Shown in pieces: positions 507-57,047 of a stretch of DNA of 64,000 nucleotides. Position 1 is the first letter of the stretch; each line of letters opens with the position of its first letter. The position numbers and the translations under genes are program-made. Below the pieces are notes generated by a model, which had not been told where the DNA came from, did not search any database, and saw nothing but the letters and a program-made list of their open reading frames with translations. Source of the stretch: a virus; IMG/VR virus record IMGVR_UViG_3300005289_000004, positions 11,641 through 75,640 of that record; one strand, written 5' to 3'.

Positions 507-752
507 TTATGCGTAGTAATTATAAAGTAACTGGTAAGCTATTGCTAGGTCTTTCTTCCACTTCTCAGGGTAAGCAGTTTTATCATACAACCTATTAATC
601 ATCTGAGCATTGATTATGTCCATAGGAAGTTCTAGTGGATGACGTGTACCAAGATCGGCACTTACATCTGAGTACAGCCGAAGTAGCTCTGTCTCTACAG
701 TGGTATAATTAAGCCCTGAATCAGAAAAATTGAACTGAGTGTATGTTGCCAT
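507..752 (-). CDS. Hypothetical late protein
   Basis: 81 aa ORF directly downstream of the late promoter at 774-812. Confidence 0.6.
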   Translation of the reverse strand: MATYTQFNFSDSGLNYTTVETELLRLYSDVSADLGTRHPLELPMDIINAQMINRLYDKTAYPEKWKKDLAIAYQLLYNYYA

Positions 753-814
753 TCTTTGCTTTTTATATAATCACAAAAGTAGGCAAATATAAAAGAGGTA
801 TTTTATGAGGCTCG

Positions 815-1489
815 CTACTTATTTATGCGAGGGTTCTTAATGAAGTACAATACTGCACCAACTATTGCAAGAACTGCAACAATTGCAATAACAGCCCACA
901 TCCCTTTAGAAGTAGGTTCTGATTTTTTATCCAATACTACGTGTTTGTCTTCTGATTTACCCTTACCTGCGCTATCTAATGTCAACTTATAATTACTGGA
1001 ATCTTTTTTAGAGGTGTCTATTTTACTGGACGTATTTGAATAATTCTTTTTAATCCTTAGTTCTTCAAAGGGTATATTCTGACTCTTACCGTTACTGGTA
1101 ATTTTAGCGGTTAGCTCGTTCCTTTTCTTGTCCTGATAGATTACTACGCTTACCCCATTGTTGTTTATGTCTACCAGTTTTAATGCTGTGTCTCCTTTTA
1201 AAGTAGAAGCTGTGTCTAATCTAAAGGTTGCTGTTAATTCGATAGGAGTTGGGTTAGGATTCCCTTTCCTGTACGTTATATCCTCACTTGTTACTGTTGA
1301 AGTGTTTTCACTGACGCCTTTGGCTTCTGTAACCTTCACATCATCGACAGTCTTTTTAACATCTGTGTTACTTTCAGTTTTGGTGTAGTCTGACAGTTTA
1401 TTCTTAGAAGTCGCTTTAAACAAACCGCAACTCCCGTATATAAAGATAACTGCTATTGATGCTAAGATTATTAGTAATGTGCGCTTCAT
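815..1489 (-). CDS. Lipoprotein with C-terminal TM helix, putative unimolecular spanin
   Basis: Signal peptide ending in a lipobox-like IYGSC; beta-rich middle; C-terminal hydrophobic helix MWAVIAIVAVLAIVGAVLYFI. Confidence 0.6.
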   Translation of the reverse strand: MKRTLLIILASIAVIFIYGSCGLFKATSKNKLSDYTKTESNTDVKKTVDDVKVTEAKGVSENTSTVTSEDITYRKGNPNPTPIELTATFRLDTASTLKGDTALKLVDINNNGVSVVIYQDKKRNELTAKITSNGKSQNIPFEELRIKKNYSNTSSKIDTSKKDSSNYKLTLDSAGKGKSEDKHVVLDKKSEPTSKGMWAVIAIVAVLAIVGAVLYFIKNPRINK

Positions 1490-1791
1490 TTCTTTGGGGT
1501 TATTGTAATAGTGCTATTTTTATTTTTAATGTCCAGTAAATCTTTTATCTCCTTATAACTTGCATCAGTTCTATTTACGATCACTGCTTGCAGACTGTCT
1601 TTTTCTTTTCTCTCTTTAACTATCATATTATCTCTAATATTAATTTGTGTTTTGAGATAGTCTATATCTTTTTTGACATCCTCTAACCTACTTTTGTTTA
1701 TGACCGCAACATATGACGCAATACTTGATATACATCCCATCATCCATAGGGCTACTTTTTTATAACTGTCGTTTGTATTTGTATTCGGCAT
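1486..1791 (-). CDS. Single-TM coiled-coil membrane protein (holin-like)
   Basis: N-terminal TM segment then coiled coil; overlaps the spanin-like gene by 4 nt. Confidence 0.45.
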   Translation of the reverse strand: MPNTNTNDSYKKVALWMMGCISSIASYVAVINKSRLEDVKKDIDYLKTQINIRDNMIVKERKEKDSLQAVIVNRTDASYKEIKDLLDIKNKNSTITITPKK

Positions 1792-1872
1792 TAAATATTT
1801 CCCCGTTTATTTGATGTCTTACAAAACTAGGAAAAATATGTCGTGCTATTATATAGTGGTGCAAACATCATG

Positions 1873-2148
1873 CTACTTCTTAGTACTCTTTCCGTCCTTG
1901 CCATTACGGCCTCTGTTGACCTTGCTACTCTCTAAAACGAGTTTTCCTGACTTAGTGTGCGACCGATCTTTTCCCATAGCAGTCATCTTTCCGTATGTTC
2001 CGGCTTTTCTATTAGCACGATTGGTTTCTGCCCTATTACGTTTCTGTTCTGGTTTTGCAGAGAACTTTGCATCGTAAGCTAATTTCTTTTTCCTTGCTTC
2101 TGGACTAAGCGTACTTTTTCCTTTTCCGGCTAGTTTGTTTCTTGGCAT
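1873..2148 (-). CDS. Small very basic protein, degenerate HNH-like
   Basis: K/R-rich; GKDRSHTKSGKLVLESSKVNRGRN resembles a minimal HNH-like D-x-x-H...N-R-x-R-N motif. Confidence 0.45.
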   Translation of the reverse strand: MPRNKLAGKGKSTLSPEARKKKLAYDAKFSAKPEQKRNRAETNRANRKAGTYGKMTAMGKDRSHTKSGKLVLESSKVNRGRNGKDGKSTKK

Positions 2149-2152
2149 ATCT

Positions 2153-5100: not shown

Positions 5101-7048
5101 CATGTATTTGCTCAGGATTAAATACCAACACCTCAGGGAACTTTAAGTCATCAGCATAATCTTTAGGGTCTAGTCCATTATCTTTAATTCTCTGCTCGTA
5201 AATTTCTGGTGTAGCGATTAAACCGTCATAACCCTGATCTTCATACTCCTTAACAAGCTCTTTACTTGTTTTACGTGTTATCTCGTTAGCATCAACATAT
5301 TTAGGGTTCTTCAAGTTAACGACAACAGATATTGTTTTACCATCTTCTGAGAAATGACCTTGTTTAGAGGATGTAAAGTACATTGTTCTACTCTTATCGA
5401 AGCTCTTTAAGTCAAAGTCTTTAGTAGTTTGGTGGTACATAACAGCATTAACCTTAGACTCAGGGAATATGTTCTGAACATACGTTTCATATTGTTTTTC
5501 ATCCCCAATAGTCTTTATCTCATCTTTACTCCCATAAACATCAGATACACCTGTTATAGGTTCAGTAGTTGTATTTTCTGCAACAGGTGTAATAATGGAG
5601 TCTAACTCTGCCTCAACTTGATTTAACTCTTCTTGTAAGGTAGTTTTAGTTACCTCAGATAAAGTTTTATCTTTAAGTATATCGGTTATAGCATCTGCAC
5701 GTTGTACAAGAATGTCTGTATCGGCTCTCTGCTCTGGGGTTAGTTTTTGCTCTGTTGTAACTGCCCCTTCAACTAAGTTAGATAACTCTTCTGTCTTTTG
5801 CTCTAATACGTCACTAACAGCATCGCTACCTGTTTTATCTAAGTCAGCTTTAAGTTCGTTGATTTCAGTGGTTAGCTGCTCTACTCTCTCACGCCCTTGT
5901 TTATTTTTAACTGAACCTAGTATATTTCCTGCACCTTGAATACCACTATCCATTACACCACCAACTATAATAGCATCAGCCACACCTTGCATCAAATCTA
6001 AGTCAGGATTTAAACCGCTATATTTATCAAGCATGTTTTGAGTGAACTGTGTAAGCCCCTCAGAAGCTCCACCTTTACCAAAAGCTACAGGAATACCGTT
6101 CTTAGCGAATATCTTTTTCAAATAACCTTCTGCAAACTCTGTTGCTTTACGTTTGGCTACGTCTATTCCATCCCTACCCAAGTCCCGTACAATATCATCT
6201 ATAATTGCTTTAGAGCCGAATGCTTGTTCAAACACAACTTCACTTAAACCGTTAAAAGCAGCAACGATTGGTTTTTGATAGTTCTTAATGTCAGGGTTGT
6301 CTTCAATCTCTGCTAATTTGTTTGAAGCAAATGGTAGCGCATTTAAAGCTGTTTTGCTGATCGTAGAGAGGTTTGCTGCTTGTCCTAGACCTGCTGTAGC
6401 ATATAGCTGTAGTAAAGACGGTACAGAGCCTGTAATAGCGTTAGCTACCTGTCTTCCTGCATCACCTAGTTTACCGTTCTTAATTGAGTTATAAATATCA
6501 CCTTCAAACTTAGTTACCTCTTTATTGTAAGCCTCTGACTCTCCCCTGTAATGTTGAGACACTTGGTCTAACAGTTTTAATGGGGTGCTTGCTTTTCCTG
6601 TTTCGTTTAACAGTTCTGCGTAGGAGGTAGATAGCGTATTCTTTAACTCCCCTTCTGGCAATTGGTCTGCTATAAAATTTTGAGGAATAGCTGCTAACTC
6701 GTAAACTATTTTTGGAATATCTGCAACACCTGCATAAGCCTTGTTAAGGGAAGATGCAAACGTGTTCCAAGTATCTGACCAAAAACCATCATCTTTTTTG
6801 GGGGCTGTTATAGCAACTTCTTCTAATTGCTTTGTTCCGTAAGTTGGTTCAGGTTCAACAGGTGCAGGTGGGGCGATCTTAGTTTCAAAATCTTCGTAAC
6901 TTCCTAGATCGTACTCTTTACCCACTCCATCATAAAATGCTTTACGTTTTGTTGAGTCTCCCATCTTACCAGAGAACTCTTCGTAACTGCCAACACTATA
7001 ATCTTTGGATACGGCTTCATACAGTAATTTTAATTTCTCCTCATCCAT
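2153..7048 (-). CDS. Large internal virion/ejection protein (polyvalent protein) with ADP-ribosyltransferase-like domain
   Basis: 1631 aa, last of three cargo-position genes; VMYHQT..MYFTS..NLKNP..GYDG..EVLVFNPEQI segment (~5070-5510) matches the ART-PolyVal pattern; largely helical elsewhere. Confidence 0.7.
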   Translation of the reverse strand: MDEEKLKLLYEAVSKDYSVGSYEEFSGKMGDSTKRKAFYDGVGKEYDLGSYEDFETKIAPPAPVEPEPTYGTKQLEEVAITAPKKDDGFWSDTWNTFASSLNKAYAGVADIPKIVYELAAIPQNFIADQLPEGELKNTLSTSYAELLNETGKASTPLKLLDQVSQHYRGESEAYNKEVTKFEGDIYNSIKNGKLGDAGRQVANAITGSVPSLLQLYATAGLGQAANLSTISKTALNALPFASNKLAEIEDNPDIKNYQKPIVAAFNGLSEVVFEQAFGSKAIIDDIVRDLGRDGIDVAKRKATEFAEGYLKKIFAKNGIPVAFGKGGASEGLTQFTQNMLDKYSGLNPDLDLMQGVADAIIVGGVMDSGIQGAGNILGSVKNKQGRERVEQLTTEINELKADLDKTGSDAVSDVLEQKTEELSNLVEGAVTTEQKLTPEQRADTDILVQRADAITDILKDKTLSEVTKTTLQEELNQVEAELDSIITPVAENTTTEPITGVSDVYGSKDEIKTIGDEKQYETYVQNIFPESKVNAVMYHQTTKDFDLKSFDKSRTMYFTSSKQGHFSEDGKTISVVVNLKNPKYVDANEITRKTSKELVKEYEDQGYDGLIATPEIYEQRIKDNGLDPKDYADDLKFPEVLVFNPEQIHELGSEADVESFKEYERSKNTSNIESEIIVPEQRLTVTEQKLTEIQARRAEITKRLSDKLSNINTGINPDAIKDLVELGVTYVEEGVIRFKDFADRMRQDLGKTIPDEQLRDIYRQSAEQLGYGVRGFGERVRTDETTPTETAELLDNTEQLYQTQDYAEIRSRLSTMDDLEKQRLVGELSAVTSQLTSEQNIGVLAGIELINKYNSEGNFDEASKIIETLSKSATVAAQTLRQYGEFKSSTPDGYIQLVEKWLDKVNKKLTEPQKTKIKELFANQQQAAARVEEALNKVTETLDDADYKDYYANEIAYEDAIRDLEDYIDNIRGKNLPDTLAKILQGNLLSFKSVVINPFANLMQFGLRGTENDVATAVDALVGLITSRRTKSPTLSADNIRLGSRAVVQGSKRATRKAVRGTANAELAKYDVGGRLKPRVAFNRLFENLKSSATREENQYGWSQGLSDFTESTIGVPANLMFRLLPFGDDPFFEQAKTQRLVEIGKNDKGLEGDALERFVLKPDAKSLEEATNYGKEATFQEENVISRNINRLIGDGAKRIEEIGGTTASASYRFIMKGILPFVNTPSSIALKTVKFAVPAIPFSQAIYDATQLTKAYKMKDSKLKETLIRRHQKDFSEHMGQAIVSGAVLGAATILVANGLATGDLPEDKFQKKQKDFMFATQPPNTINVDGVKRLLNGEDFAYKQGDRVVSYVPLGLIGAQIGIVSSTKGEQLREQKKKADVVNTKGEAYYPEAGLNPLNFIGNFATNAPAAMRYFFNQSFVQGAETILSAVSTPDGAKNIIPQLGKTFVTMGIPNTVSQTFRASNDYMRDLYTDDQLQTFANIIKEKVGNVEDLPIKYDMWGKPIKQTPDGSNPYVYQIIDIFRSQKILQDPITYAVFDIQRKTRDDGAIPNSIDDTFTKKDFKVKLDKEQKSELTKMVGQERRKLVERILKNYTDKTDPERMIPRLKSAYSRGAAIAKSKFRRKIKI

Positions 7049-7050
7049 CT

Positions 7051-8433
7051 TTAAAATCCTTGTATTGTTTTCTTACCTGTTGACTTAGGGGCTGTTTGTT
7101 TTGGTGTTGATTTGGCAGTTGTACTTCCTGCTGTTGCTGGTTTAAAAGTTGACAATGCTTGCGCTATAGATTTAGAGTTTTTAACGTTAGCTGGTAATCT
7201 ATCATAAGGAATGAAATAATCATTAGCCACACCATCCTCTGCTAGCCTAACATGTATAACTGGTTTCCTAACCACATTATTAGGATTGTTTCTAGCAAAA
7301 TTAGGTTGTGCTATAGCTCCTGCAAGTGGATTTTTCCCTTGACCTTTTGCTGGTTTAATAAATGGTGCGTTAGTTATACCCACTACTTCATATCTGCCAG
7401 AAGAAGGTAACGGCTCATTCAAAGGTTTACCTGTTGCTAGGTCTATTGACTGACTACCTGCAAAATTCTTATTAGGGATAGATAGCGGTACATATTCATC
7501 TAACTGTACACTTCCTTTACCGTCTGCAAATGGAAGATTAACTGAGGTAAGACTGCCAACTGCTGCGTTACTTCCTGAACCAGATTTAGCTACAGCAGGG
7601 ATAACATCTCTGAACCTGTCTTTAACTTCGCCCGGTTTAAACGCACTATATAACTCTTGAGTTTTCTGTACAAGCAATTGATCTGGCGTAACACCTAGTT
7701 GTGCAGCTTGCGTATCAAAAATATTACGGTACTTACTATCATTATTATACTGCCAGCTAAGTGCTGTCCCTACAGTTTCTGGTGTTAAATTAGTTGTGGT
7801 TATTTTATCTCCTGTCAAAACACGACCGTCCATACTACCTTTACCGTACGATGTAGTTTTACCTGCTTTGTTAACAAGAGTATTCATCAGTTGTGACTCT
7901 TCGTTATTTAGGTAGCTGGTATCAGGTTGAGTGTAGTTGGCAAGGTTGTATGCTCCCAAGTCTATTTCATCAGTTGGTGTTTTATCCAGTTTTTGAAGTC
8001 TAGCTTTAGCATCAGAAGAAACTAATCCTGTACTTCTTGGGTCTGCTATAAAGTCGTATGCTTTGGTGGCAATTTTACCTCTTTCTTTACTGGTAGTTAT
8101 AAACTGTTTAGTCTCGTTAATGTCTTTCTCCAACTGCATTCTTAGCTTTAACCGTTCTTCCCTACTTGACGCTTTGTTAGCTTGATAGTAAGTGTCGTAA
8201 ACTTTAGTGAGTCTGCTGTTTAATTTATTTACATCTACCTGTTGTATGCCATTAGGGTTGATGTTTTTAATTAAAGTAGACAGTTCTTTTTGGTCGGCTG
8301 CTTGTTGTTTAGCTAATGCTTGCTGTTGTGATACTATTCTCTCTTGGTTAGCTTGCCACGCTTTACCTATTGTTCCGAAGAACGCACCCAACACGGCATC
8401 TCCTCCTCCATTATAATCTTGTGGTGTTGCCAT
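7051..8433 (-). CDS. Internal virion/ejection protein
   Basis: 460 aa, Q/A-rich coiled-coil N-terminus, lies between the small and large ejection genes. Confidence 0.6.
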   Translation of the reverse strand: MATPQDYNGGGDAVLGAFFGTIGKAWQANQERIVSQQQALAKQQAADQKELSTLIKNINPNGIQQVDVNKLNSRLTKVYDTYYQANKASSREERLKLRMQLEKDINETKQFITTSKERGKIATKAYDFIADPRSTGLVSSDAKARLQKLDKTPTDEIDLGAYNLANYTQPDTSYLNNEESQLMNTLVNKAGKTTSYGKGSMDGRVLTGDKITTTNLTPETVGTALSWQYNNDSKYRNIFDTQAAQLGVTPDQLLVQKTQELYSAFKPGEVKDRFRDVIPAVAKSGSGSNAAVGSLTSVNLPFADGKGSVQLDEYVPLSIPNKNFAGSQSIDLATGKPLNEPLPSSGRYEVVGITNAPFIKPAKGQGKNPLAGAIAQPNFARNNPNNVVRKPVIHVRLAEDGVANDYFIPYDRLPANVKNSKSIAQALSTFKPATAGSTTAKSTPKQTAPKSTGKKTIQGF

Positions 8434-8436
8434 AGT

Positions 8437-9063
8437 TTATGCGTAAAGTCCTTGTTGTCTGCCGTTAATTGGTGCAAACGGGTTGTATTGTAGTCCTGCT
8501 TGTCCTTGCGTTGATTGTTGTTGTCCTCCTAAACCACCTCCCATAGCAATTGCCGTTGCGCCACCGATGCCATTAAAGATATTTTGTACACCTGCATTTC
8601 TCATAGATGCCACTTGCTGTGCTGTCCTTAGGTACGGTTGTGCTTTATTCCAGTTCCAAACTCTTTGCTGTTCTTGAGCTAAAGTTTGATTCTGTTGCAT
8701 TGAAAGTATTTGATTCTGTCTACGTGCCTGTTCGTCCTGTATATTCAGATTTGTGGTGGCTTGGTTAGCTTGCCTAAGTAAACCAGCAACTGGTATATTT
8801 CTTCCTGAACGTGATGCCGAGGCCAGTATAGTAGAGAGGTTGTTCTGATTCTGTTGTAAGGCGTTATTATACTGAGTATTTGATAACCCAATTTGTGCCA
8901 TATTTCTAGCTTGTGCTGCGTTTTGAGCCAAAAGTGAGTTAACTTGTGCTACAGGTAATTGATTATTCCTTTCCAACGCGTTTGCCCTCGCCCCCTGAAA
9001 CAATCCGTATGCGGAGCCGAGTAGGTTTGCGCCAATTCCGAGTGCAGCTAAAGGTAATGCCAT
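8437..9063 (-). CDS. Small ejection (pilot-like) protein
   Basis: Q/N/A-rich coiled coil flanked by Gly/Ala hydrophobic helices, typical of podovirus ejected proteins. Confidence 0.65.
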   Translation of the reverse strand: MALPLAALGIGANLLGSAYGLFQGARANALERNNQLPVAQVNSLLAQNAAQARNMAQIGLSNTQYNNALQQNQNNLSTILASASRSGRNIPVAGLLRQANQATTNLNIQDEQARRQNQILSMQQNQTLAQEQQRVWNWNKAQPYLRTAQQVASMRNAGVQNIFNGIGGATAIAMGGGLGGQQQSTQGQAGLQYNPFAPINGRQQGLYA

Positions 9064-30460: not shown

Positions 30461-30709
30461 TTAAAACGGTAAATCTGACGAATCTCCGTTAGTTTGTCCT
30501 GTTGGTTTGAAATCGTTAAGCACCGCATATTTCTTACCCCCTTCTTTAGCGTTTAAAATATCAACGTTACAATACCCTTTTTCGTTGGTGTGATCTTGCA
30601 GGAACTGTGCGAAGTCTGCTGTTTTGAAGGATAGCTTTGTGATCTCTCCGAAGGTAGTGTTTTTAACGTCTACGAATAAGCCGTTTGCATAAATTTTCTC
30701 GTTTGCCAT
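30461..30709 (-). CDS. Small ssDNA-binding-like protein with DLPF tail
   Basis: 82 aa beta-rich protein ending in the acidic SSB-type tail DSSDLPF. Confidence 0.55.
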   Translation of the reverse strand: MANEKIYANGLFVDVKNTTFGEITKLSFKTADFAQFLQDHTNEKGYCNVDILNAKEGGKKYAVLNDFKPTGQTNGDSSDLPF

Positions 30710-30730
30710 TTTTACTTTTGTTTAAGTTTA

Positions 30731-31042
30731 CTATTTAATTTGTTTTCCTTCAACATTACGTTTCACTCTATCAGCAGTTCTTTTATTTAACCACATAAGA
30801 GACTCTTCCAATTTGGTTATTACCAATGCGTTCTCTCTACACGGAAACTTAGATTGCAAATAGTTCATCCTTGCAATAAGGACTTCTAAAACCTCCTCAT
30901 TAGTTGTACCATCACTTACAGTCATCAACTCAACCGAACCCTCTTCTTTTGGTTCTTTTTGAATAAACTGGATTGTCTGTCCGTTCCTTGACTCTTCAAA
31001 GTTTGAAGCAACGTACCTGTGTCCTTCTACTAGTTCTTGCAT
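30731..31042 (-). CDS. tad1: Tad1/Acb2-family anti-defence sponge protein
   Basis: FPCRENALVITKLEESLMWLNKRTADRVKRNVEG matches the Tad1 helical hairpin motif RENA.A.T..EEALMW.N.R..DR..RNV.G. Confidence 0.75.
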   Translation of the reverse strand: MQELVEGHRYVASNFEESRNGQTIQFIQKEPKEEGSVELMTVSDGTTNEEVLEVLIARMNYLQSKFPCRENALVITKLEESLMWLNKRTADRVKRNVEGKQIK

Positions 31043-31170
31043 GTTTTTAATTCTAATTTATATTGTTTCTTTAATCTTTTATACAATGTCCGTTTTGGTA
31101 TGTCGCTGTTACTCTCAGCTAGTAGTACACCAGCTAACCCTCTTAATTCTCGTGCTTTATTTCCGGTCAT

Positions 31171-31365
31171 TTACAGTAGAATTAGTTTTTCATCATTTAT
31201 AAGTTCAGACTGCCAATCTCTTAAAAGATTTATTGCATGTTTTAATTCTTTCGCTCTAACCTGATCTGTTAGAACTTCTTCTGGTTTAATGTAACCACCA
31301 TCTGAAATGTCATACCAAAAACCATCTGTTGTGACAATTTCTTGTTCGTCTTTGTACTTACTCAT
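31171..31365 (-). CDS. Hypothetical protein
   Basis: 64 aa with FWYD...GGYIKPE motif; TATATTTG promoter just upstream. Confidence 0.6.
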   Translation of the reverse strand: MSKYKDEQEIVTTDGFWYDISDGGYIKPEEVLTDQVRAKELKHAINLLRDWQSELINDEKLILL

Positions 31366-31549
31366 CTTCTTTAATGTTTAACTTAACAATTCAAATATAC
31401 GACTACTATATGACATTACCAAATTTATTTTTATAAAGGGATAGCTTTACTTTTTCGTATAGGATGTTAAGTTATAACTGTACTTGTGTCACCCTGTTAA
31501 AATAGGTATACTATTTCTGTATATATTTGCAATTGTAAAAGTAAAGTAG

Positions 31550-31557
31550 TACCTTTG
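31550..31557 (+). promoter_or_regulatory. Bacteroidota -7 promoter element TACCTTTG
   Basis: Matches TAnnTTTG with an upstream TTTG -33 element. Confidence 0.7.
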
Positions 31558-31560
31558 CAT

Positions 31561-32055
31561 GTATAAGTAGTTGTTATATCAGGAGTGTAACATACCGCAG
31601 CTTAAAAGATATTAGAAAGGCCGATAAGTCGTCAAATAGGAACTCCTGATTCCTGATGTACTTTGAAGCCTTTTCTGTTTTAAATATTTTATTTAAGCTG
31701 TTGTATGTAGTCGTTGAACAGCTTGGGATATAAGAAGCCCTTAAACAAAAACAACCGTTAAGAAAATAGGCTAAGAAATAAAGAGTTAGCAATGCTTACG
31801 CCAGCAACTAACGACCTGAATGACAGAAATGTTCAAACACTTAGACCGCCATTGAGAATAAGATTTAGCTTTGATTGAGATTTACGAGCTATTTGGGAGG
31901 GGTGATGGGTAGTTTTCTTATAGATTGTAACCTTTAGAACTTAGATCAGCTATAATGCTAGATTATTAATAAGGGTTAACTCAGGAAGGTTGGGATCAAG
32001 TATCTCTACATTCAGGGGTATAAGGCGGGAACTGTCTAATCAGCAACTAACGATC
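31561..32055 (+). ncRNA. Candidate large structured ncRNA with 5' kissing-loop module
   Basis: No credible ORF; loops ATCAGGAGT and ACTCCTGAT are complementary; several long-range complementary segments. Confidence 0.55.
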
Positions 32056-32066
32056 ATATATAGGTT

Positions 32067-32285
32067 ATGTCAAGAAGTTATAAAAAGAGTGCAGTAATAA
32101 AAGATGGTGGGCATGAAGGTAAGAAACGCTTCAACCAAAACTTTAGGAGTAAAAATAAAATACACATAAGGTTAGGTCTTGAACCCAAGTTGCCCAATGA
32201 AGTAGAAAATCAATACAATTTATGTGATTGGGGGTGCAGGTTTGAGAAGAGTCATCCCGACTATAAAGTAAGAAAAAGAAAATAA
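32067..32285 (+). CDS. Small basic protein
   Basis: MSRSYKK..., K/R-rich, directly after the candidate ncRNA. Confidence 0.65.
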   Translation: MSRSYKKSAVIKDGGHEGKKRFNQNFRSKNKIHIRLGLEPKLPNEVENQYNLCDWGCRFEKSHPDYKVRKRK

Positions 32286-32341
32286 TACTTGCACATATAA
32301 AAATAAAACACTTACTTTGACTTATATTAAAAAACAAAATT

Positions 32342-32797
32342 ATGGAAGACCTAAGAATTAGAGAGCTTGACTTTTTCAAGCACAGAACAATCACTTATAT
32401 GTGTAAAGCAAGAGTGGGTGAAATGGTAATATTTAATAATGAGATGGTTCACGAATCGGAATGTGAAAGAGTCACGGAACCCTTCAAGCTTTCGTATAAT
32501 CTTATGAAGTCAGGCGCTCAATTAATATCAACAGAGAGGCGTGAACAAATGTCTAAGCACAAATACAATGATTCTAACGATGACGAGTACGTAAACGGAG
32601 AGTTGAAACAGGCTGCAATATATGCCTTAACGTGTAATGATGATGTAGTTTCCAATTACCCTAAGGACTGGCATCCTATTTTTGGTGATAAATGTGCTAC
32701 CAAAGATGAGATAGGATTATTGACTGTAGCTGGAGCTTTAATTGCGGCTGAAATAGACAGAATTAGAAGGCTGGAAGAAAAGGAAAACAATTTTTAA
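32342..32797 (+). CDS. Conserved phage hypothetical protein
   Basis: ER..Q...DD....GEL..AA.YA..AGALIAAEIDR motif. Confidence 0.65.
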   Translation: MEDLRIRELDFFKHRTITYMCKARVGEMVIFNNEMVHESECERVTEPFKLSYNLMKSGAQLISTERREQMSKHKYNDSNDDEYVNGELKQAAIYALTCNDDVVSNYPKDWHPIFGDKCATKDEIGLLTVAGALIAAEIDRIRRLEEKENNF

Positions 32798-32814
32798 CAA
32801 CTCCACTTTAATAT

Positions 32815-33243
32815 ATGAAAAATCAATTAGCAATAGCAATTAGTTTAACCGCACAGGTTTTTGAAACTAAAACTGATAAGGCAGGACAACCTTACATCCT
32901 ACATTGTTTAAGAGTAATGAACGCTGTAGCAGGAGATGACGAGTTAATGCAGATAGCAGTTCTTCACGATGTTGTTGAAGACACTAACATGACTTTAGAG
33001 GACTTGAAAGGTTTAGGATTCACAGACAGGGTTATAACAGCAGTTAGTAGGCTGACACACAATTCAGGTGAAAACTACGACGAGTATATTAAATGGATTT
33101 CATTTAGCCCTGATGCCACAAAAGTAAAGCTAGCAGACTTAAAAGATAACAGTGATATTACAAGACTAAAAGGGCTGACTAAAAAAGACTTTGACAGGAT
33201 GGAGAAATACCATAAATCCTATGTCTACTTATCTTCCATATAA
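32815..33243 (+). CDS. HD-domain hydrolase (RelA/SpoT hydrolase/Mesh1-like)
   Basis: GQPYILHCLRV..AVLHDVVEDT..LTH..VKLADLKDN. Confidence 0.85.
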   Translation: MKNQLAIAISLTAQVFETKTDKAGQPYILHCLRVMNAVAGDDELMQIAVLHDVVEDTNMTLEDLKGLGFTDRVITAVSRLTHNSGENYDEYIKWISFSPDATKVKLADLKDNSDITRLKGLTKKDFDRMEKYHKSYVYLSSI

Positions 33244-33247
33244 ACTT

Positions 33248-33847
33248 ATGATGACGCCATCCCAGATAAGACGATGTGAACGATTAAAACAGGAGACTAA
33301 AGCTAGGAGAACGTTACGGTTAGCTGAGAAAGCTAAAGAGAAGCAAAGACAGTTAGTTTTAAAGGCTAAACAGAAAGCAGACCGTAAATTAGCAAAGGCT
33401 GTACCAGTTAAACCTGAACAAGAGAAGCTACCCAACAGACAGATAAATTTAGACAAGTGTGTAAGAGTACAGCTAGACGATAACACTGAAGTCTACGTAA
33501 AAGAAGGAACGGATATTAACACACTTAAAGCTAGACATAAAAAGGCACGTAAAGTAGGTTCAATAGGTAAGGTTAGAGAGTGGAGTAACAAGCAGGAGCG
33601 TTGGTTAGCAGATAATTATAAAGAACTTACAGATGCCGAGATGTCCAAACATTTAGGAAGAACGCCTCATGCTATCAAAGAGAGAAGATGCCAGTTAAGG
33701 TTACTGAGAAACTGCGGGGACACTTTGTCCTTAAAAGCCAAAATAAAGCGCATGAAGGAACTAATAACTTTATGTGAAGCTAATCCTTCACCACCTATAA
33801 AAGATGGCTATAAACTAGAGCTAATGAAGTTAAGCGGATTATGGTAA
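33248..33847 (+). CDS. Basic protein with HTH/Myb-like motif
   Basis: WSNKQERWLADNY..EMSKHLGRTPHAIKERRCQLRL; likely start MMTPSQ. Confidence 0.55.
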   Translation: MMTPSQIRRCERLKQETKARRTLRLAEKAKEKQRQLVLKAKQKADRKLAKAVPVKPEQEKLPNRQINLDKCVRVQLDDNTEVYVKEGTDINTLKARHKKARKVGSIGKVREWSNKQERWLADNYKELTDAEMSKHLGRTPHAIKERRCQLRLLRNCGDTLSLKAKIKRMKELITLCEANPSPPIKDGYKLELMKLSGLW

Positions 33848-39121: not shown

Positions 39122-39223
39122 TATCTTTGTGCTGTTACAGTATCTCAATTTAAGTAACAGTAAGAAATTTAACACCCATTGCACCTAAAAGTGAGTTGAG
39201 ATACACTGGCGGGAGTAGTGGGT
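39122..39223 (+). promoter_or_regulatory. Promoter plus kissing-loop RNA leader
   Basis: TATCTTTG followed by two hairpins whose loops TATCTCAATT / AGTTGAGATA are complementary. Confidence 0.6.
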
Positions 39224-39233
39224 TTATTATTTT

Positions 39234-47143: not shown

Positions 47144-47602
47144 TTATTCGTTCTCACCTTGCAGTTTGATTAACAATGCTAATCCATCAGTCTTTAATAC
47201 TTGCGCTCTAGTCTTTCTATCTCCTTTCCAAAATACATGCGGATTGATCGTATAGTTCCCAAAGCTACCAGTAATTAAACCTTTCTTAATAAGGCTCTTT
47301 ATATTCTTACTGATGTTGGTCAACCCTATATTCAACTCTTTACATATCTCTATACGTGATGCTGTGGTTAGCTGTACAACTCCTGTATTGTACTCAGCTA
47401 CTTCGCAGAACTTTACCAATAACTTTAAGTCGGATAGCTTAGTAAGTCCGTACAATGAACTGATAAACTTTGTGTACGTCATAAAGAACTCCTCTGTTTC
47501 TATCTTAACATTAAACTGTTTGGTTGTTTCGATCAACCTTACTTCTCCTGTTTCGTAATCTACTGTTTCTGTGGTCTGTGATTGTGTTGTGAACTTTGCC
47601 AT
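47144..47602 (-). CDS. repL: RepL-like replication initiator (HTH)
   Basis: VDYETGEV N-terminus, HTH (ICKELNIGLTNISKNIKSLIKKGLI), YTINPHVFWKGD. Confidence 0.75.
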   Translation of the reverse strand: MAKFTTQSQTTETVDYETGEVRLIETTKQFNVKIETEEFFMTYTKFISSLYGLTKLSDLKLLVKFCEVAEYNTGVVQLTTASRIEICKELNIGLTNISKNIKSLIKKGLITGSFGNYTINPHVFWKGDRKTRAQVLKTDGLALLIKLQGENE

Positions 47603-47633
47603 AATGCTTTGCTAATTTATTTAGTAACAAAGA

Positions 47634-47756
47634 TACTACTAAATAGTACGTGTATTTACTAAGGGTTAGTAAGCGGTTTACTATTCTCTAGTATTTAAAT
47701 ACTAATAATTCGGTGTAGAATACTAATCTCTAGTACTACGTTACTAATGGGTATCA
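47634..47756. repeat. Iteron-like array TACTA-N5-TAGTA
   Basis: Copies start at 47634, 47657, 47679, 47700, 47721, 47742 (four perfect palindromes, two half-degenerate), period 21-23 bp. Confidence 0.8.
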
Positions 47757-48821
47757 TTCATTTAGTTGTAATACAGGCAGTTATAAAACCTCTCTATCTT
47801 ATCTAATTAGGTATTATTTATTAATGCTAGGTTGTTGGTTCACTTTTCTGAACCTGTTGAAATCCTTACTGTACACTAAGCTACTAACAGTTTCTTTTAT
47901 TCATGCGGTGTAGCATACGTACTCACGATAGTTTAAATGCGGTTTATGAAAAGCTGTGAAGAGGTCAGTTTTAGCTAGTAATTTACACTAAGTAGGGTAT
48001 TTTAGCTGTTTTATAGTGGGATTTGGGGAAATTTGATGTGTAATGTGTGCATGAGAGACGAATAGTGCCTTTGTCCTTATCTCCCTTATCACTATTTGAA
48101 GCTATCCTAATCTATTGTATTACCTATTTAAACCCCCACATCGTCACTTTGTCCATGCATTTGTCTATGCTCCCACTTTAAACCGTCCTCTTTACCTATC
48201 TGTATTCATGCTGGCTGTCTTACTTACGTATGTTAGGCTTATCCCCTTTTATTCTCTGGTTAGCTTAGCACGTGTAATTATAGAAGATTCGTTCTAATTT
48301 CGGGATTATAGTCTGTTTGTTCTATATTATGTTGAGGTGTACTATTCAGCTAGTACAGTTAGTAGTCATTCTGTTTAAACATGTAATCATTTGGTTACCT
48401 ATTCCTTAACTGTTATGTTGTATACATAGGTTATTACTATTATCAGTTGGTTAGCTTATAAGGTGCAATGTTATTCGGTTAGCTATTCACTTAAAATTAT
48501 TATCTCTCATTTTCAGACAGTTACATTTTATTTGAAAATATTTATTGCTATTTGTTTGGTTTGCCTAATAATCCTTTGTATGTTTGTTATGTCGTTAGTG
48601 ATTAACGCAATCAGATAGGCAACTGTAAAGGTCATTCCGCAAAGCTAGGGTAATAATATAGCATAAGGTAAAGCATACCGACTGTACAAATGCATCTTCG
48701 TGTAATGTAGCTTAGTTAACTAATATGGTTAGCTGATCAGTTCAAAGCCTGAGAAAGTAATTACAGTTTTGTAATGAACAAATACAGATGACACAAACAG
48801 AAACTTTTAAACTTAAATATT

Positions 48822-51800
48822 ATGAGAGAATTAACAGTAACACAACAGTCTTTTAACAGTATGTTATTAGGCTTGATACAATCAGGTGTAACATTTGAAG
48901 CTACTGAACAACCAAACGGTACAATATTAATCACATTCACAGGAGGGTATTAAAATGCAAGACAAATGGTTTTTATACGCACTCGTTGCTATGGGTGTTA
49001 TAGCTTTAATAATATTATCCACACTTTAAATTATACAGTTATGAATACACTGGAATTTTTATCTAAGGCAGAATCGATGTACTTAGACTACGTTAACAAC
49101 TTCATTACACTTGAAGGATTTGCAAGTCACTACGCAATTAGTATCGGGTTAGCTATTGAACTAATAAACTTTGGCAGAGTAGTATTTGAATCAAGTGAAT
49201 ACGAACGTAACACAGACCTTTAATTTTAAAACTATGAATACTCAAATTGAATTTACCCGCATTAACAACGACACAAACGGCAATCCTAGGTATGTGTGTC
49301 ACTTCTTAAATCTGTTAAATAGTAAAGAGCAGGTTGTAATAGCTGCTAAAGCTAAACCATTTCAATCTATACCTGATATGTACAGGGAGGCAGTTAACAA
49401 AGCACGTGCAATAGGTGGTAAGAAATTCCACAACAAACAATACGGAGGTGGTATAGTATTTCAGTCTTACAGCATTCAACAAACAGAGAAAGATATTTTA
49501 AACCTTGTAAATAGCTAGAAAATGGAAGTAGTTTATATAGCAACCTACAAAAAAGATAACGGATATATCAACACTGTACAGTTTGCAGACTTCAATGAAA
49601 TGGTTGAATACCTAGAGACGTACAGAGACTGTAAAGTAATAATAACCACTATTTACATTTAACAATTACAAACATGAAAACTACAGCAATACAACAACAG
49701 TTAATTAACCATCTTGAAGCAGGATTTTTAGTTAGCAAAAAAGAACAAGATAATTTGTTCAAAATACTAAACGGCTCTAACACTGAACTAATAGACAAAT
49801 TAAAAGAACTGTTAAATGAAAGTGAGGGTATTAGTTTATCTGATGAACATAGCAATCAGGGCAAAGACTGGCTTTTAAATCTTTGGAAGTCACTAACAGG
49901 TAAAGAGCGTAAAAACAATCCATTTGGGTACAGAGAGCAGGAAATATTGACAGATTTTAGTCACTGCGAATTGGCAGGTTATTATAACGGTGGTAATAGG
50001 TATATGAACTACTACATTCCTTTGTATGACGTTGTAAGTAATGACGGCAGTAGTTTTCAATACTACATGCAAGGTGGTGAAATTAGTATAGTAGGGTAAC
50101 ATACCAAAACAAATAGAAAGTGTCTAAAATCGGCTAATAATAACCTTAAATCAAAGAATATGAAAACTAAAGAACAAAAAATAGCAGAACTATATAGTAA
50201 CATTGAATTGAACTATAAATTAATAGATGCTATTGTTGACTTGCAAGATGCGGGTTTTGGTAGTAGTGCATTATCACTAGCTCAAGACGAGGCAAATATG
50301 AGAGTTTCAATTAATCAAGAATGCTTAAAAGAACACGAATAACAATCCCTTCCCTGTCTACAGATTTAAATAGCTTGTAACTATTCAGGGAACTAAACTT
50401 AAACAAAATAACATCATGTATTTAACAGAAAAACAAATCAATAGAGTTGCTATAGTGGGTAGCTTTATTATAATCTCTCTAGTAGTATACGCCTTAACAA
50501 AAGGTAATGTGTCTAATCTTTCAACTATAGGATATTAGGTTATGACAAACAGCCAATTTACTATTACCTTAGCATTAGGTCTCTTGCTAGGTATTCTAAT
50601 AACAGTATTAACTTATTCATTATTTAATGTATGAAAACATTAACATTAAACCCTAAAAACTATAAGGTAGGTGATACCATTAAGTTTAGTACAATTACTA
50701 GGTCAGGAAAAGAGACTGTTAAACGGAAGATTGTTTCTATTGATAGCTTTGGTTTAGGTGTAAGATACAACGGTTGGAATCCCTATTACTTAAATAACCC
50801 GATGTTAGATAAAATTATTGAACATATAAAATTATAATTGTTATGAAAACAAACAACAAGAAAGAGGTGATAGCTACGGCCATAGCGTTTGTAGTTATCA
50901 TGAACATGTGTATAGGGTTTACAATAGTAATAGCCCTAACTGATGTGTACACAGTAGAATGCTGGTTAGCTTTGGTATTCAGTGTAGGTATTCTTATACT
51001 GGTAGGTCTTAAACTGGTAGCTGATATGGTAGAATATGAAATAAATAAACAACTTGAATTATAATTGGTAAATTCAAAAGGAGAATTAACTATGAAAAAG
51101 AAAACAATTATACTACAGCTACTGACTGTAGATTTTGAGAATCCTAATTATGGCAGCAATTGTGACTGTCCTGTAGGTAAAGCATGTGCTAGGCAATTAG
51201 GGCTTAACAGGGACGATATTATAGAGTGTGTTGATTGGGTTTATCTAGGTTACGATTTAGACCGATACGACCACGAAGTTTACGGTTTAGATAAGTTTAA
51301 TGCAGACGTTAAGCTAGCCGAACAAAAAGAACCAAACACAGTAATTAGAACACTTACCTTAACTAAAGCATAACATGTATTTACAAACAGAAATACCGAC
51401 ACGTGGTAGCTGGGTAGCTTGGTTAGCCACGATGATAGTTGGAGAGGTTAAAGTAGCTGACCCAAAAGACAGGAATAGAATAGCCACAAGTATTAGCAGT
51501 GCTTTTCATAAAAAGAAGCTGGCTAGGTTTACTATTAAAATTAACAAAAACGACCGTTCAGAATTACATATTACGAGAATCGCATGAGACTGCCTGAAAT
51601 GGTTGCATTAGCGCAACAAGGGGTAAAAATGACCCATAGATATTTTAGTGAAAATGAGTGGTTAGTTATGCAGGGCAACTTAGTTGTGTTTGAAGATGGA
51701 GTTAAGATATTCCTGTCTGAATGGATAACTAATAAAGAGTGGTTAAACGATGGTTGGTCTAAATTTGAAGAGTTATGAAAAGTGTAAATTTCAAAGTAGT

Positions 51801-53844: not shown

Positions 53845-55035
53845 ATGAAAAAAGAATTAAAAGGGTTAGAACAACCCAAAACAGTTGTGCATTGTGACAC
53901 AGAAGAAAAAGCTAACCAAGTACTTAAAATTGCTACAGAGGCTGGCTATGATGGTTTCAGTGATGGTGTTAAGTATTCGGAGGATAACAAGTATGAGCGC
54001 TACAAAGAGAACACATGTTATCAAATTAAACAAGGGTGGTACTCAGGTTTAAACTTTTACACAAGTGAAGGTTACAAGATAATCACAGCAGAAGAATTTA
54101 TTAAAGCTAACCCAACAGTAAAGCTACCCTCCAAAGAAGATGTATACGTAGTACTTGACACACCGGAAAAAGTAAGACAGTTTTATAGTGTTCTTGTACA
54201 GGCAAATGAACCTATATATTATACCTCTAAAGAACGTTGGAGTAAAGGTGAGGTTGACAGTGAATATGATTATTCAAAATATAGTGGTGGTGAATGGAAT
54301 GGGCTTGGAATAAAAAGTGGAACAGAAGTATCAGTAGAACAATTAGCAGAAATATTAAACGTAAAGGTCGTGGAAACAAATTATCGGTTTAAGGTAGGTG
54401 ACAGAGTTAGCACAGCTCATGGAATAGGTACAATCGTAGCTATAACTGACCATCAAAGTCAAAAATACATAGTAGCGAACGACCAAACATTCTTGCAAGG
54501 GCACAACTGTTACAGCAATTCGAATATAATTGACGGTAGCAAGGACGGTTTAAACAGTAACGGTTGGTTTTATAAAGAAAATGAAATGGAATTAGTTAAG
54601 ACAGAAACTCAAACTAAATCGTCCGAGAAAACTCAAACTATCATCCCTAACCGTAAAGTATCACGTGAAGCTCTGGCTGTTATTTACCCACAAGTTTGTT
54701 CAGGATGGCAAGCTAATATTACCAGTCTGTTAGCTAAGACCAGTGCATTTAGCAATGAGGTTGAAGTATCTGAGGATATGGTTAAGACAGCTTATAATGA
54801 GGCTAACGACACGCAAAGAAAATGGCTGAACCTACACTTACCTGCACCTAAAAAGATTGAAACAGTTGAGGTTGTTAAGTGGGCTGTTCTTGACTTAGAA
54901 GATTTAATCATAGGCTCTTATGCAACTGAAAAATTAGCAAGAGGAGCTGCTGGCGGTAATACTGTTGTTGAACTTAAAGGTAGCTACACCGTAGAAGTAG
55001 AAGATGAAGAGTACAGTTTTGAGTTGCCCTTCTGA
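53845..55035 (+). CDS. Multi-domain hypothetical protein with acidic ELPF tail
   Basis: Two related N-terminal domains (VHCDTEEK / VVLDTPEK), SH3-like FKVGDRV segment, C-terminal EDEEYSFELPF. Confidence 0.6.
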   Translation: MKKELKGLEQPKTVVHCDTEEKANQVLKIATEAGYDGFSDGVKYSEDNKYERYKENTCYQIKQGWYSGLNFYTSEGYKIITAEEFIKANPTVKLPSKEDVYVVLDTPEKVRQFYSVLVQANEPIYYTSKERWSKGEVDSEYDYSKYSGGEWNGLGIKSGTEVSVEQLAEILNVKVVETNYRFKVGDRVSTAHGIGTIVAITDHQSQKYIVANDQTFLQGHNCYSNSNIIDGSKDGLNSNGWFYKENEMELVKTETQTKSSEKTQTIIPNRKVSREALAVIYPQVCSGWQANITSLLAKTSAFSNEVEVSEDMVKTAYNEANDTQRKWLNLHLPAPKKIETVEVVKWAVLDLEDLIIGSYATEKLARGAAGGNTVVELKGSYTVEVEDEEYSFELPF

Positions 55036-55060
55036 TAAAACAAACAGCAGTCTTGTCTCG

Positions 55061-55095
55061 AACCGTTATCTCTTAATTGGGGTAGCGGTTTTGTT
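55061..55095 (+). terminator. Rho-independent terminator of the early operon
   Basis: AACCGTTATCTC/GGGGTAGCGGTT stem then T-rich tail. Confidence 0.7.
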
Positions 55096-55099
55096 GTTT

Positions 55100-55600
55100 A
55101 AGCATTATTAACTTTAAAGAAACTGGTAATTTTGACTATAATCAACTGTCCTATAGTGCTATACAACTATCATCTAAACAGGGATTCTTAACCACTCAGC
55201 ATAAATAGAACTGGTAATAGCACACTCGCTAGAAAATGCAACTTGGTAGTTAAGATAAAAGGTAAAAGGTTAGTCTTCGACCCCTCCTGTAAATTATTGT
55301 ATTTGATATCGCCAGTCACTTTTATGGCATTGCTTCCTAAATTAATAGCTTGGGGAATCCGAATTTACAAGGACAACGGTTGGGTACGTTTCAGCGATAA
55401 CTATACAGAAGCTATGTATCTGATCCAATATACGTGTGAAGTATAAAGTGTGGATGCTTGAATGCTTAGACTCAAAACAAAAGCAACAGCCCCCGTATGT
55501 AAGAGTGCAACGTCTTTACGGATAAATAGTGGGGGCAGGAATATTGCTTTGAATATCTTTTATTATTTATCTAACGTTGCAATACAAAGGTGCAACAAAG
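55100..55600 (-). ncRNA. Second candidate large structured ncRNA with kissing-loop module
   Basis: TATATTTG promoter at 55632-55639 (minus); loops TGCAACGT/ACGTTGCA; linker TAAAAGATATT identical to the 31.6 kb copy; no credible ORF. Confidence 0.5.
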
Positions 55601-55672
55601 ATTTAATATATTTTGACTAGGCTTAATGGGACAAATATACAAATAATTCTTATATTTACAAAAAGAAAAGTT

Positions 55673-56068
55673 ATGCCTAAAATATGTAAGCTATGCACTT
55701 ACCCCGTATTCTCAAAAGGACTGTGTGTAAGGCACGATAGGGAGAGAAGAGCAGTAGAGTCCCAGAAGAGTCCGAAAGTGGCTAGAAACGCCCCAAAACG
55801 ATCTCAAATAAAGAAGAAGTTTCCTAAACCTACCGGAGAAAAGTCCTTGTTTCTTGAGATATGGAATGAAAGACCTCACATCTGTGTTAATTGTAAGACT
55901 CACTTAGGAGATGAACCGTTAGCACACTACTTTAGTCACATTAAACCGAAAGGTCTGTACCCTGAATTACGGTTGGATAAATCTAACGTAGAAATTTTGT
56001 GTATACCATGCCATACTGCATATGGAACACAGTCAAAAGAAAAGTACGAGGCTAGGGCTAGGTTGTAA
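55673..56068 (+). CDS. HNH/NinG-like nuclease
   Basis: CVNC..FSHIKPKG.YPELRLD..N..LCIPCH. Confidence 0.75.
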   Translation: MPKICKLCTYPVFSKGLCVRHDRERRAVESQKSPKVARNAPKRSQIKKKFPKPTGEKSLFLEIWNERPHICVNCKTHLGDEPLAHYFSHIKPKGLYPELRLDKSNVEILCIPCHTAYGTQSKEKYEARARL

Positions 56069-56183: not shown

Positions 56184-57047
56184 TTACTTGGCTGTTAGTT
56201 GTCCGTACATTTCCAGTACCTTATCAATAGGCGCTTCTTTCACAAACTCTTGTACGCTTGTAAATTTGTAGCCTGATTTTATGGTTGATTTGAGTACAGT
56301 TGCTGCGTCTAGTTTGTTAAATAATTCCAATGCCTTAGCACGTCTGGCAGATTCGTCAGAAGCCGAACCCTCTGTAGGTTGACCTTTTACTTCCGTTTTA
56401 TCAAAGTTAGTGTTAGGTTGGATTGCACTACCAGTAATTTGTGTGCTAGGTTTAGATTTTTCCGTAGTGGTAGCTTTAGCAGTTGGTGTAACCTTTTTTA
56501 CTGGTTGTGGTGTTACTGTTGCACCTGCTAAGGCTTTAACTCCATACTTAGTCCTATCTAAATCTCCACTCTCTGCAACTTTCTCACAGTATTCAGTTAG
56601 CTCATCAACAGTCCAAAGGATTTTACTATCATCTGTAGCAGGGTATTCCTTGCCATTTGTGTGAGTAGCTGTCTTTAAAGTTATGATTCCTAGTTTATAC
56701 AAGAACCGACCCAATCCCCATTTGACACAGGCTCTTTTAAATGCGTCAGATATTTCACCCTTTTCAGCGTCAGTGTTAGACTCTGTACCTAAATCTTTCT
56801 TAGTTACCCATTCTTCACCGTCAGCTCTGCCTACTAAAATTGAAACTGATGCCACTACACTCTTATCTAGCAGTTCGTAATTGTCTTGCCAGTTCTCTGC
56901 ACCTAGTACATCATCCAACCGTTGCGCTGCCTGTCTGGAATCGATATAGCTGACAATAGTTGCTCTTCCGTTCTTAGCTGACTGTAATCTATACTTGTAA
57001 GGTATATTTTCTTGTAGCTGTTTTAATTGTTCTGTTGTTACTCCCAT
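56184..57047 (-). CDS. Rad52/Rad22-like ssDNA annealing protein (Sak)
   Basis: YIDSR...RLDDVLG..NW..K.D.G..EKG..SDAFKRACVKWGLGRFLY. Confidence 0.85.
   Translation of the reverse strand: MGVTTEQLKQLQENIPYKYRLQSAKNGRATIVSYIDSRQAAQRLDDVLGAENWQDNYELLDKSVVASVSILVGRADGEEWVTKKDLGTESNTDAEKGEISDAFKRACVKWGLGRFLYKLGIITLKTATHTNGKEYPATDDSKILWTVDELTEYCEKVAESGDLDRTKYGVKALAGATVTPQPVKKVTPTAKATTTEKSKPSTQITGSAIQPNTNFDKTEVKGQPTEGSASDESARRAKALELFNKLDAATVLKSTIKSGYKFTSVQEFVKEAPIDKVLEMYGQLTAK

Follow-up and report, generated by a model that had tools for sequence, protein, structure and literature searches.

A conserved, promoter-headed module without open reading frames at the divergent switch of an uncultured phage, and its recurring two-hairpin head

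What function, if any, resides in some 500 nucleotides (nt) that hold no recognizable gene at the point where the operons of a densely coded phage genome diverge? The question is raised by positions 31550 to 32066 of a 64,000-nt stretch of DNA (hereafter the window, to which all coordinates refer) that corresponds to bases 11641-75640 of the 75,640-base-pair (bp) IMG/VR virus record IMGVR_UViG_3300005289_000004. An initial annotation, made from the sequence alone, had interpreted this region as one large pseudoknotted non-coding RNA (ncRNA) with a kissing-loop head, possibly partnered by a small basic protein encoded directly downstream. Since related uncultured phages preserve the stretch with hardly any change, we consider it very likely to be functional, probably as an RNA. 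The reading that we tentatively favour is that of a modular unit, in which a host-type promoter is followed by a leader that would gate transcription and by a conserved non-coding body.

The 75.6-kilobase (kb) record carries direct terminal repeats. Its TerL protein is only ~27% identical to those of the nearest GenBank phages (the Cellulophaga phi46:3 group, and Flavobacterium and Maribacter phages), and the promoters of the genome are of the Bacteroidota type; the source is therefore an uncultured Flavobacteriia-type podophage without close sequenced kin. A blastn search of the GenBank phages returned no match to the stretch. By a rough gene call, ~91% of the genome is coding and only three gaps exceed 400 nt, and a spacer of 700 nt is exceptional in such a genome. 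The features of this gap, and of the module within it, are the following.

31366-32066: gap of 701 nt without a gene, between a leftward gene block (ending at 31365) and a rightward block
31526-31557 (+): rightward promoter, with -33 TTTG (31526-29), a 20-nt spacer and -7 TACCTTTG (31550-57)
31572-31592 (+): hairpin 1, TGTTAT/GTAACA, with loop ATCAGGAGT (31578-86); unchanged in a relative from compost
31603-31613 (+): linker TAAAAGATATT, an A-rich 11-mer with two occurrences in the genome
31614-31676 (+): hairpin 2, 63 nt, with an interrupted stem; base AGAAAGGC/GCCTTTTCT, inner AGGA/TCCT
31642-31650 (+): apical loop of hairpin 2, ACTCCTGAT, a perfect 9-nt complement of the loop of hairpin 1
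31677-31694 (+): U-rich tract GTTTTAAATATTTTATTT, whose position after hairpin 2 makes that hairpin terminator-like
31688-31863 (+): core of the body and its most conserved part, ~97% identical in a canine and a brine contig
31864-32047 (+): tail of the body, less conserved, with the G-rich word GGAGGGGT (31896-903) and TAACCTTT (31928-35)
31802-31814 and 32041-32053 (+): 13-nt exact direct repeat CAGCAACTAACGA
32067-32285 (+): K/R-rich open reading frame (ORF) of 72 amino acids, outside the conserved module

All motifs, hairpins and long-range complements listed in the initial annotation are present in the sequence, including the exact 9-nt complementarity of the two loops, and its statement that the ~380 nt behind the head lack a credible ORF was borne out. 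The + strand between 31550 and 31990 contains no ORF of at least 30 amino acids, stops occur throughout all six frames, and the only sizeable ORF is a TTG-started frame of 72 amino acids on the minus strand, which is destroyed in the compost relative by a 1-nt deletion at 31634. Beyond the 13-nt repeat, no internal duplication of the body was found. The promoter ahead of the head is indeed a canonical one of the Bacteroidota type (TTTG-N20-TACCTTTG) and belongs to a set of ten full two-part promoters of this type in the 75.6-kb genome, among which only those at 31550 (+) and 55639 (-) lead into ~500 ORF-free nt; at two others that were read directly (31399 and 40170), an ATG comes within ~25-30 nt. 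The promoter at 31399 (-) is the leftward counterpart of that at 31550 (+) within the gap, and the module between these divergent operons sits at the minimum of the cumulative guanine-cytosine (GC) skew.

The element also proved to be unclassified, as had been proposed. Covariance-model searches of the whole window with Rfam 15 at gathering thresholds gave no match (families covered include group I/II introns, GOLLD, ROOL, OLE, HEARO, guanidine-IV, Flavo-1, tmRNA and 6S), and a search of 31000-32600 at E values up to 10 returned only three weak chance matches, all of which lie inside the downstream 72-amino-acid ORF. ARAGORN detected neither a tRNA nor a tmRNA. A tmRNA-like tag was on this ground rejected as a candidate, as was a TnpB/IscB-type guide RNA, for which no such protein is encoded nearby.

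Parts of the stretch are present in eight public sequencing runs from six studies (compost, canine, brine, aquatic, viral and freshwater material), none of which is recorded as RNA, and contigs from four of these runs were aligned to 30700-33300; the homologues are visible as differences against the window in one contig alignment with a threshold of at least 80% identity. Over 31512-32047, a 608-nt compost contig differs from the window by 25 mismatches and one gap (~95% identity), in an alignment that begins upstream of the promoter and thus includes it, whereas neighbouring coding DNA from the same compost run is 85-92% alike and most coding DNA does not align at the threshold. A canine contig keeps 31688-31863 and a brine contig 31688-31855, with five mismatches each (~97%). 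Upstream of 31688 these two contigs no longer align but keep the form ..AGCCTTTTTT(A/G)CGTTTAAAA, which is the 3' side of hairpin 2 followed by its U tract (a GCC-U-tract form). The changes listed for the compost relative are dense in the tail (31856-32001) and sparse in the head, with two between 31691 and 31855; a few unlisted ones cannot be placed. On the left flank of the compost contig a weaker likeness continues, by our reading, and on the right flank the last ~13 nt before an ATG are kept and other codons follow. The conserved block hence delimits a unit that starts with the promoter and stops shortly ahead of the next gene. Judged by these alignments, the core is the most constrained part, head and core diverge at different rates, and the module as a whole is under strong constraint at the nucleotide level.

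The distribution of the changes within the module is also informative. None of those listed for the head of the compost relative touches hairpin 1, the linker, either loop or a stem of hairpin 2, and the two that fall into hairpin 2 (the deletion at 31634, and 31635 A>G) affect its internal loop only. In the tail, the word GGAGGGGT is intact although the flanking bases 31895 and 31904 have changed. The changes 31601 C>T and 31695 A>G, the latter just downstream of the head, both keep their pairs as G-U on the + strand of a predicted helix (31597-606/31692-701) that encloses hairpin 2; this compatibility weakly suggests an RNA from the + strand.

Beyond these contigs, no relative of the module was found in the collections that were scanned. 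The core 20-mer CAGCAACTAACGACCTGAAT had only chance matches in IMG/VR, the JGI metagenomes and the GTDB genomes (they lie in coding DNA of unrelated, G+C-richer contigs and of a Mucilaginibacter metagenome-assembled genome), two gapped patterns of three motifs each had no match in IMG/VR, and neither TerL nor the neighbouring proteins of 72 and 151 amino acids have relatives there. A host origin of the core was rejected after a search of 401 Bacteroidota genomes, which yielded only short, scattered matches at chance level. The recurrent matches in these genomes fall on the promoter and the terminator-like parts; segment 31662-31709 has short BLAST matches in 8 of the 401 genomes, and these we read as probable generic terminator-like tails.

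The second line of evidence comes from the phage genome itself, in which the head recurs. The linker TAAAAGATATT is present twice, at 31603 (+) and 55562 (-), against 0.27 expected occurrences, and at each site the 40 nt ahead of it include a word (ATCAGGAGT, 9 nt; TGCAACGT, 8 nt) that has a perfect complement within the 75 nt that follow it. When 20,000 random genome positions were examined in the same way, such complements were met with frequencies of 0.008 and 0.025, respectively, which gives a joint chance of ~2e-4. A third copy of the head, devoid of a body, precedes a protein-coding gene. The additional copies are arranged as follows.

55470-55662 (-): second head, with promoter TTTG-N19-TATATTTG (55662-55632), hairpin TGTTGCA/TGCAACG and linker at 55562-52
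55513-55506 (-): apex ACGTTGCA of the long hairpin 2 of the second head, complementary to TGCAACGT (55581-74)
39122-39233 (+): third, head-only copy, with loops TATCTCAATT (39141-50) and AGTTGAGATA (39194-203), which could form 10 pairs, one of them G-U

All three sites (31550 (+), 55639 (-) and 39122 (+)) combine a promoter-proximal 5' hairpin with a terminator-like hairpin and a U tract, and at all three hairpin 2 is long, with an A-rich 5' base and a U-rich 3' base ahead of that tract; in the first copy, the base stem consists of GGC/GCC plus A/U pairs and is followed by GUUUUAAAUAUUUUAUUU. The complements measure 9, 8 and 8(+2) nt, and their letters differ from site to site. The third head reuses the stem letters of hairpin 1 (TGTTA/GTAACA, 39132-60) with different loop words, and it stands directly before a gene for an HNH-type endonuclease of 309 amino acids (PHROG 681/559, Pfam DUF723) that comes after the DNA polymerase gene. 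Its -7 box ends only 2 nt before hairpin 1, and transcripts born at this promoter would therefore fold differently from those that read through it. The second head is followed by ~400 ORF-free bases. It lies within another promoter-headed stretch of ~500 ORF-free nt (55036-55672, -), situated between the end of a gene for a 396-amino-acid protein of no known family, with a plausible terminator at ~55062-55100 (+), and an HNH gene (PF01844). The leftward gene block that lies to the right of this copy starts with the gene of a Rad52/Rad22-family single-strand annealing protein (56184-57047, -; PF04098, E 9e-11). The gene-poor gap at 47603-48965 was considered as a further copy and rejected, as it shares no features with the module.

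We suggest that these observations are best described by a unit composed of two modules. The first would comprise the canonical host-type promoter and a ~120-nt leader consisting of a 5' hairpin, an A-rich linker, a long terminator-like hairpin and a U tract. In the transcript, the loop of hairpin 1 could pair with the apex of hairpin 2, and the leader may gate the passage of transcription into the downstream DNA, either as an attenuator or as the target of an antitermination system. The second module would be the ORF-free body of ~370 nt (31688-32047), the first ~170 nt of which are almost invariant among the relatives. We envisage the body as an RNA product in which the sequence matters more than a stable global fold, and which might serve as a binding or decoy platform or as a base-pairing RNA.

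Several findings weigh against this interpretation. Hairpin 2 is not called by a strict terminator scan of 31000-32800, and at the second head it is the 3' strand of hairpin 1, and not the loop, that supplies the complementary word. The folding energy of the module is ordinary, with a z-score of the minimum free energy (MFE) of -1.04 for the whole stretch on either strand and of -0.69 for the core; the head by itself reaches -1.93. A strict search of the entire genome for pairs of hairpins with at least 8 complementary loop bases found 3 instances, compared with 1-7 in shuffled genomes, which means that the kissing architecture alone is not beyond chance; a kissing-pair scan of 80 other phage loci likewise stayed within the range of the shuffles, and a relaxed head scan that allowed G-U pairs was too permissive for use. 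The proposed kissing-loop head thus fared unevenly: its loop complement recurs with other letters at the linker-matched second site, and the architecture as such does not exceed shuffled genomes. From this sequence alone the element rises above chance only weakly, and it is the linker-anchored paralogue test and the conservation in other metagenomes that lift it above this level. The words of both loops are unchanged in the relatives, of which only three are known, near-identical in the core, and which hence show no covariation. Furthermore, conservation alone cannot separate an RNA from a DNA site.

The relationship between the two bodies also counts among these points. Local alignment of the body of copy 1 with that of copy 2 did not score above shuffles, other windows of the genome score higher against copy 1 than the copy 2 body does, and Rfam gave no match on 54900-55800. 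The two bodies share five words of at least 8 nt in the same order, three of which occur nowhere else in the genome, and a collinear 8-mer chain test on the bodies alone gave P = 0.02-0.35 depending on the settings. An anchored alignment analyzed with alifold yielded a common fold that consists of hairpin 1 and a GGAGG/CCUUU hairpin only. Homology between the bodies is, by these comparisons, not established.

Could the entire region instead be a long cis-acting 5' untranslated leader that serves only the rightward genes, through attenuation and translational control, and from which no separate RNA is made? The conserved block does reach from the promoter to a point ~20 nt short of the next ATG, in this genome as in the compost relative, the strict scan calls no terminator at the 3' end of the module, and a similar head stands directly before the endonuclease gene. 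A means of translational control would be provided by the Shine-Dalgarno (SD)-like GGAGG at 31896 and a mini-ORF of 10 codons. SD sequences are mostly absent from Bacteroidota mRNAs, hence an SD-like word at this position is unusual. The arrangement at 31896-31937 (+) comprises a strong SD-like GGAGGGGTGAT, 4 nt, and the mini-ORF (MGSFLIDCNL); the word GGAGGGGT is found at only two sites in the genome, at 31896 (+) and at 55287 (-), and no ORF follows the latter copy. Against a role confined to cis control stand four observations: the next gene is an orphan for which no counterpart was detected in the relatives; the gene after it seems to have a promoter of its own, to judge by a conserved promoter-like block at 32281-32319; behind the second head, at 55639 (-), come ~500 ORF-free bases and the end of a convergent gene, which leaves this head nothing to regulate; and the leaders at 31399 and 40170 are only ~25-30 nt long. 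A purely cis-acting leader is less likely because the downstream gene is such an orphan and the second head has no gene to control, and we regard it as an unlikely account of the locus.

The orphan status of the downstream gene deserves to be set out, since the initial annotation had cast its K/R-rich 72-amino-acid product as a possible partner of the RNA. A search of 5.8 billion proteins returned the protein itself as the sole match, it belongs to no Pfam or PHROG family, no relative contig aligns to its ORF at the threshold of at least 80%, and in the compost relative the codons that can first be read behind the module are different ones; the proposed partnership thus finds no footing in the sequence data. 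Between this ORF and the one of 151 amino acids lies the short block 32281-32319 (+), which ends in ..CACTTACTTTG and is kept at 90-92% in two compost contigs that then enter the start of another gene (..ATGAATTTAAAAC); the block probably represents a portable promoter.

A role at the level of the DNA is possible, although we deem it quite unlikely. The divergent switch might contain a transcription-activated or R-loop origin of the kind exemplified by ColE1 RNA II and by T4 oriF/oriG, or a cluster of protein-binding sites. The position at the GC skew minimum between divergent operons, the strong promoter, the G-rich block ~340 nt downstream of it (31895-31909), the 13-nt direct repeat and the A-rich core without stable structure would all suit such an element. 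However, the skew minimum of a phage tracks gene orientation and is not independent evidence, the compost relative, with an alignment that stops at 32047, lacks a complete second copy of the direct repeat (32041-53), and the covarying complementary words of the heads point to base pairing and not to a fixed protein site. Moreover, a RepL gene, an adjoining palindrome array and a 1.36-kb gene-poor region already offer an origin at 47.1-49.0 kb. No minus-strand TAnnTTTG box, as would be expected for a promoter of a ColE1-type RNA I, is present between 31560 and 31700. The gene-poor region mentioned above (1,363 nt, 47603-48965) adjoins the RepL-family gene (47144-47602, PF05732) and is the more obvious candidate for an origin; within it lie a full promoter at 48579 and a possible ORF of 44 amino acids at 48823-48957. 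Should the function of the module nevertheless reside in the DNA, the module would denote a conserved site of control at the principal divergent switch in this group of phages.

The architecture put forward by the initial annotation, a single pseudoknotted ncRNA of ~500 nt in the manner of GOLLD or ROOL in which head and body form one structure that the 72-amino-acid protein may bind, appears improbable. The helices on which it was built all exist (31695/31717, 31759/31913, 31815/32009, 31841/32034 and 31846/32024), and 31815/32009 does cross the last two. Perfect helices of at least 8 bp are mildly enriched, with 6 in the sequence where dinucleotide shuffles give 2.5 +/- 1.5 (P = 0.026), the 5' end (31568-75) is predicted to pair with 32042-49 in a helix of 8 bp, and the nucleotide conservation is strong. 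Set against these points are the unremarkable MFE z-scores, -1.04 for the whole and -0.69 for the best-conserved part, and long-range helices that remain near chance. In addition, the extension of the 31759/31913 helix is disrupted in the compost relative by 31923 G>A and 31926 T>C, with no compensating change, and the 3' partner of the terminal helix is not whole in the same relative. The head stands alone before a protein gene at 39122-39233, and in the canine and brine relatives its divergence is separate from that of the core; the orphan status of the proposed protein partner adds to these objections.

We consider it highly improbable that the core encodes a micro-protein. The candidate, an ORF of 28 amino acids at 31792-31878 (MLTPATNDLNDRNVQTLRPPLRIRFSFD), has an ATG start and an A-rich upstream region, lies inside the most conserved stretch, and contains a sole change in the compost relative (31856 G>A) that is conservative (R to K). 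Nevertheless, no compost change is listed in its first 21 codons or in the ~60 nt upstream (31730-31791), the aligned canine and brine contigs differ at only 5 positions each, and synonymous changes are lacking, a pattern that speaks for constraint on the nucleotides; the brine relative diverges after 31855 and reaches a stop at codon 23, and the ORF spans only about half of the conserved core. An equally remote explanation, that of a non-functional AT-rich spacer with chance inverted repeats that recent kinship alone has preserved, agrees with fold statistics near chance and with the handful of runs in which the stretch occurs, but not with a module whose conservation clearly exceeds that of the adjoining coding DNA in these relatives and shows an internal gradient, with a head recurrence at P ~2e-4, or with a spacer of 700 nt in a genome that is ~91% coding.

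How does the modular unit that we favour compare with known systems? Its closest published precedent is given by the early long ncRNAs of the Cellulophaga crAss-like phage phi14:2, which are also of unknown function: rightward transcription of the intergenic regions g004-g005 and g005-g006 of this phage begins early and is abundant and persistent (Drobysheva et al., bioRxiv 10.1101/2020.03.07.982082). The two phages have in common a Flavobacteriia-type host and long intergenic stretches free of ORFs where an early arm begins, but the RNAs of phi14:2 were demonstrated by RNA sequencing while that of the module described here is a predicted one. A relationship in sequence was not detected, as the stretch matches no GenBank phage and none of five motif words occurs in positions 1-9000 of phi14:2; a kissing-pair scan of phi14:2 was uninformative. 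One may go further and propose that the near-invariant core of ~170 nt (31688-31863) represents a new class of trans-acting phage long ncRNA behind a kissing-loop gate, which would titrate or bind a conserved host or phage factor, be of the same kind as the phi14:2 RNAs, and be common to phages from compost, brine and animal-associated habitats. We put this extension forward as a speculative one that is rather unlikely to hold.

With regard to the leader, two familiar arrangements invite comparison. In the lambdoid late unit PR' - 6S RNA - tR', a constitutive promoter is followed ~100-200 nt on by a terminator, from which the Q antiterminator releases transcription. The module resembles this unit in that a promoter is followed by a terminator-like hairpin, with a short RNA to be expected unless termination is overcome; it differs in the length and interruption of hairpin 2 and in the possible loop-loop pairing, which is not part of the lambda unit. 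Pfam and PHROGs scans recognized no Q-like or other antiterminator among the neighbouring proteins, although no search was aimed specifically at antiterminators. The guanidine-IV riboswitch (mepA motif) likewise consists of two hairpins with kissing loops, the second of which is tied to a terminator. In contrast to the members of this family, the module gave no Rfam match to it in 31000-32600 even at E values up to 10, and its loop words differ freely between copies and are thus ill-suited to form a ligand pocket. With GOLLD, ROOL and OLE, the module shares its large size, its phage or prophage setting and a function that is unknown, but it lacks an Rfam match, a tRNA neighbourhood, and any sign of an exceptionally stable or covarying fold.

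Long ncRNAs of phages are rare and mostly unexplained, and the module is a compact and well-delimited candidate for this group. Its promoter is of the host type, its separable leader is found at three places in a single genome, each time with matched words of its own, and its core is kept better than the surrounding genes across habitats. It makes two questions amenable to experiment, namely whether Bacteroidota phages gate transcription through loop-loop pairing on a terminator, and what a phage RNA does that is constrained in its sequence and weakly folded.

The surroundings of the module yielded some additional observations. In the leftward promoter block (31366-31511), the -7 box TATATTTG lies at 31399-31392 (-) with a -33 TTTG 20 nt away, and the promoter is bracketed by a perfect 10-bp inverted repeat, TAACTTAACA / TGTTAAGTTA (31379-88 / 31465-74). 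A contig from an aquatic metagenome keeps 31377-31488 with one mismatch, and its adjoining coding piece is ~86% alike; this relative is without the gene for a 64-amino-acid protein, with 31152 joined to 31377 and 23 other bases in between. Further to the left, 30731-31042 (-) encodes a protein of 103 amino acids in which a hairpin domain of the Acb2/Tad1 type was recognized (PF24729; score 28.8 bits, cut-off 27) and which is thus a candidate anti-CBASS/Thoeris sponge. IMG/VR contains 151 relatives of this protein, with identities of up to 80%. Within ~0.7 kb of the gene, no neighbouring gene is common to any of the 80 loci that were fetched, and it hence looks like a freely moving accessory gene; synteny with the gap, or likeness to its DNA, was sought in these same 80 loci and not found. 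At the left end of the window, 2153-7048 (-) encodes a protein of 1,631 amino acids with a weak match, below the cut-off, to the ADP-ribosyltransferase domain of polyvalent proteins (PF18760, 23.3 bits).

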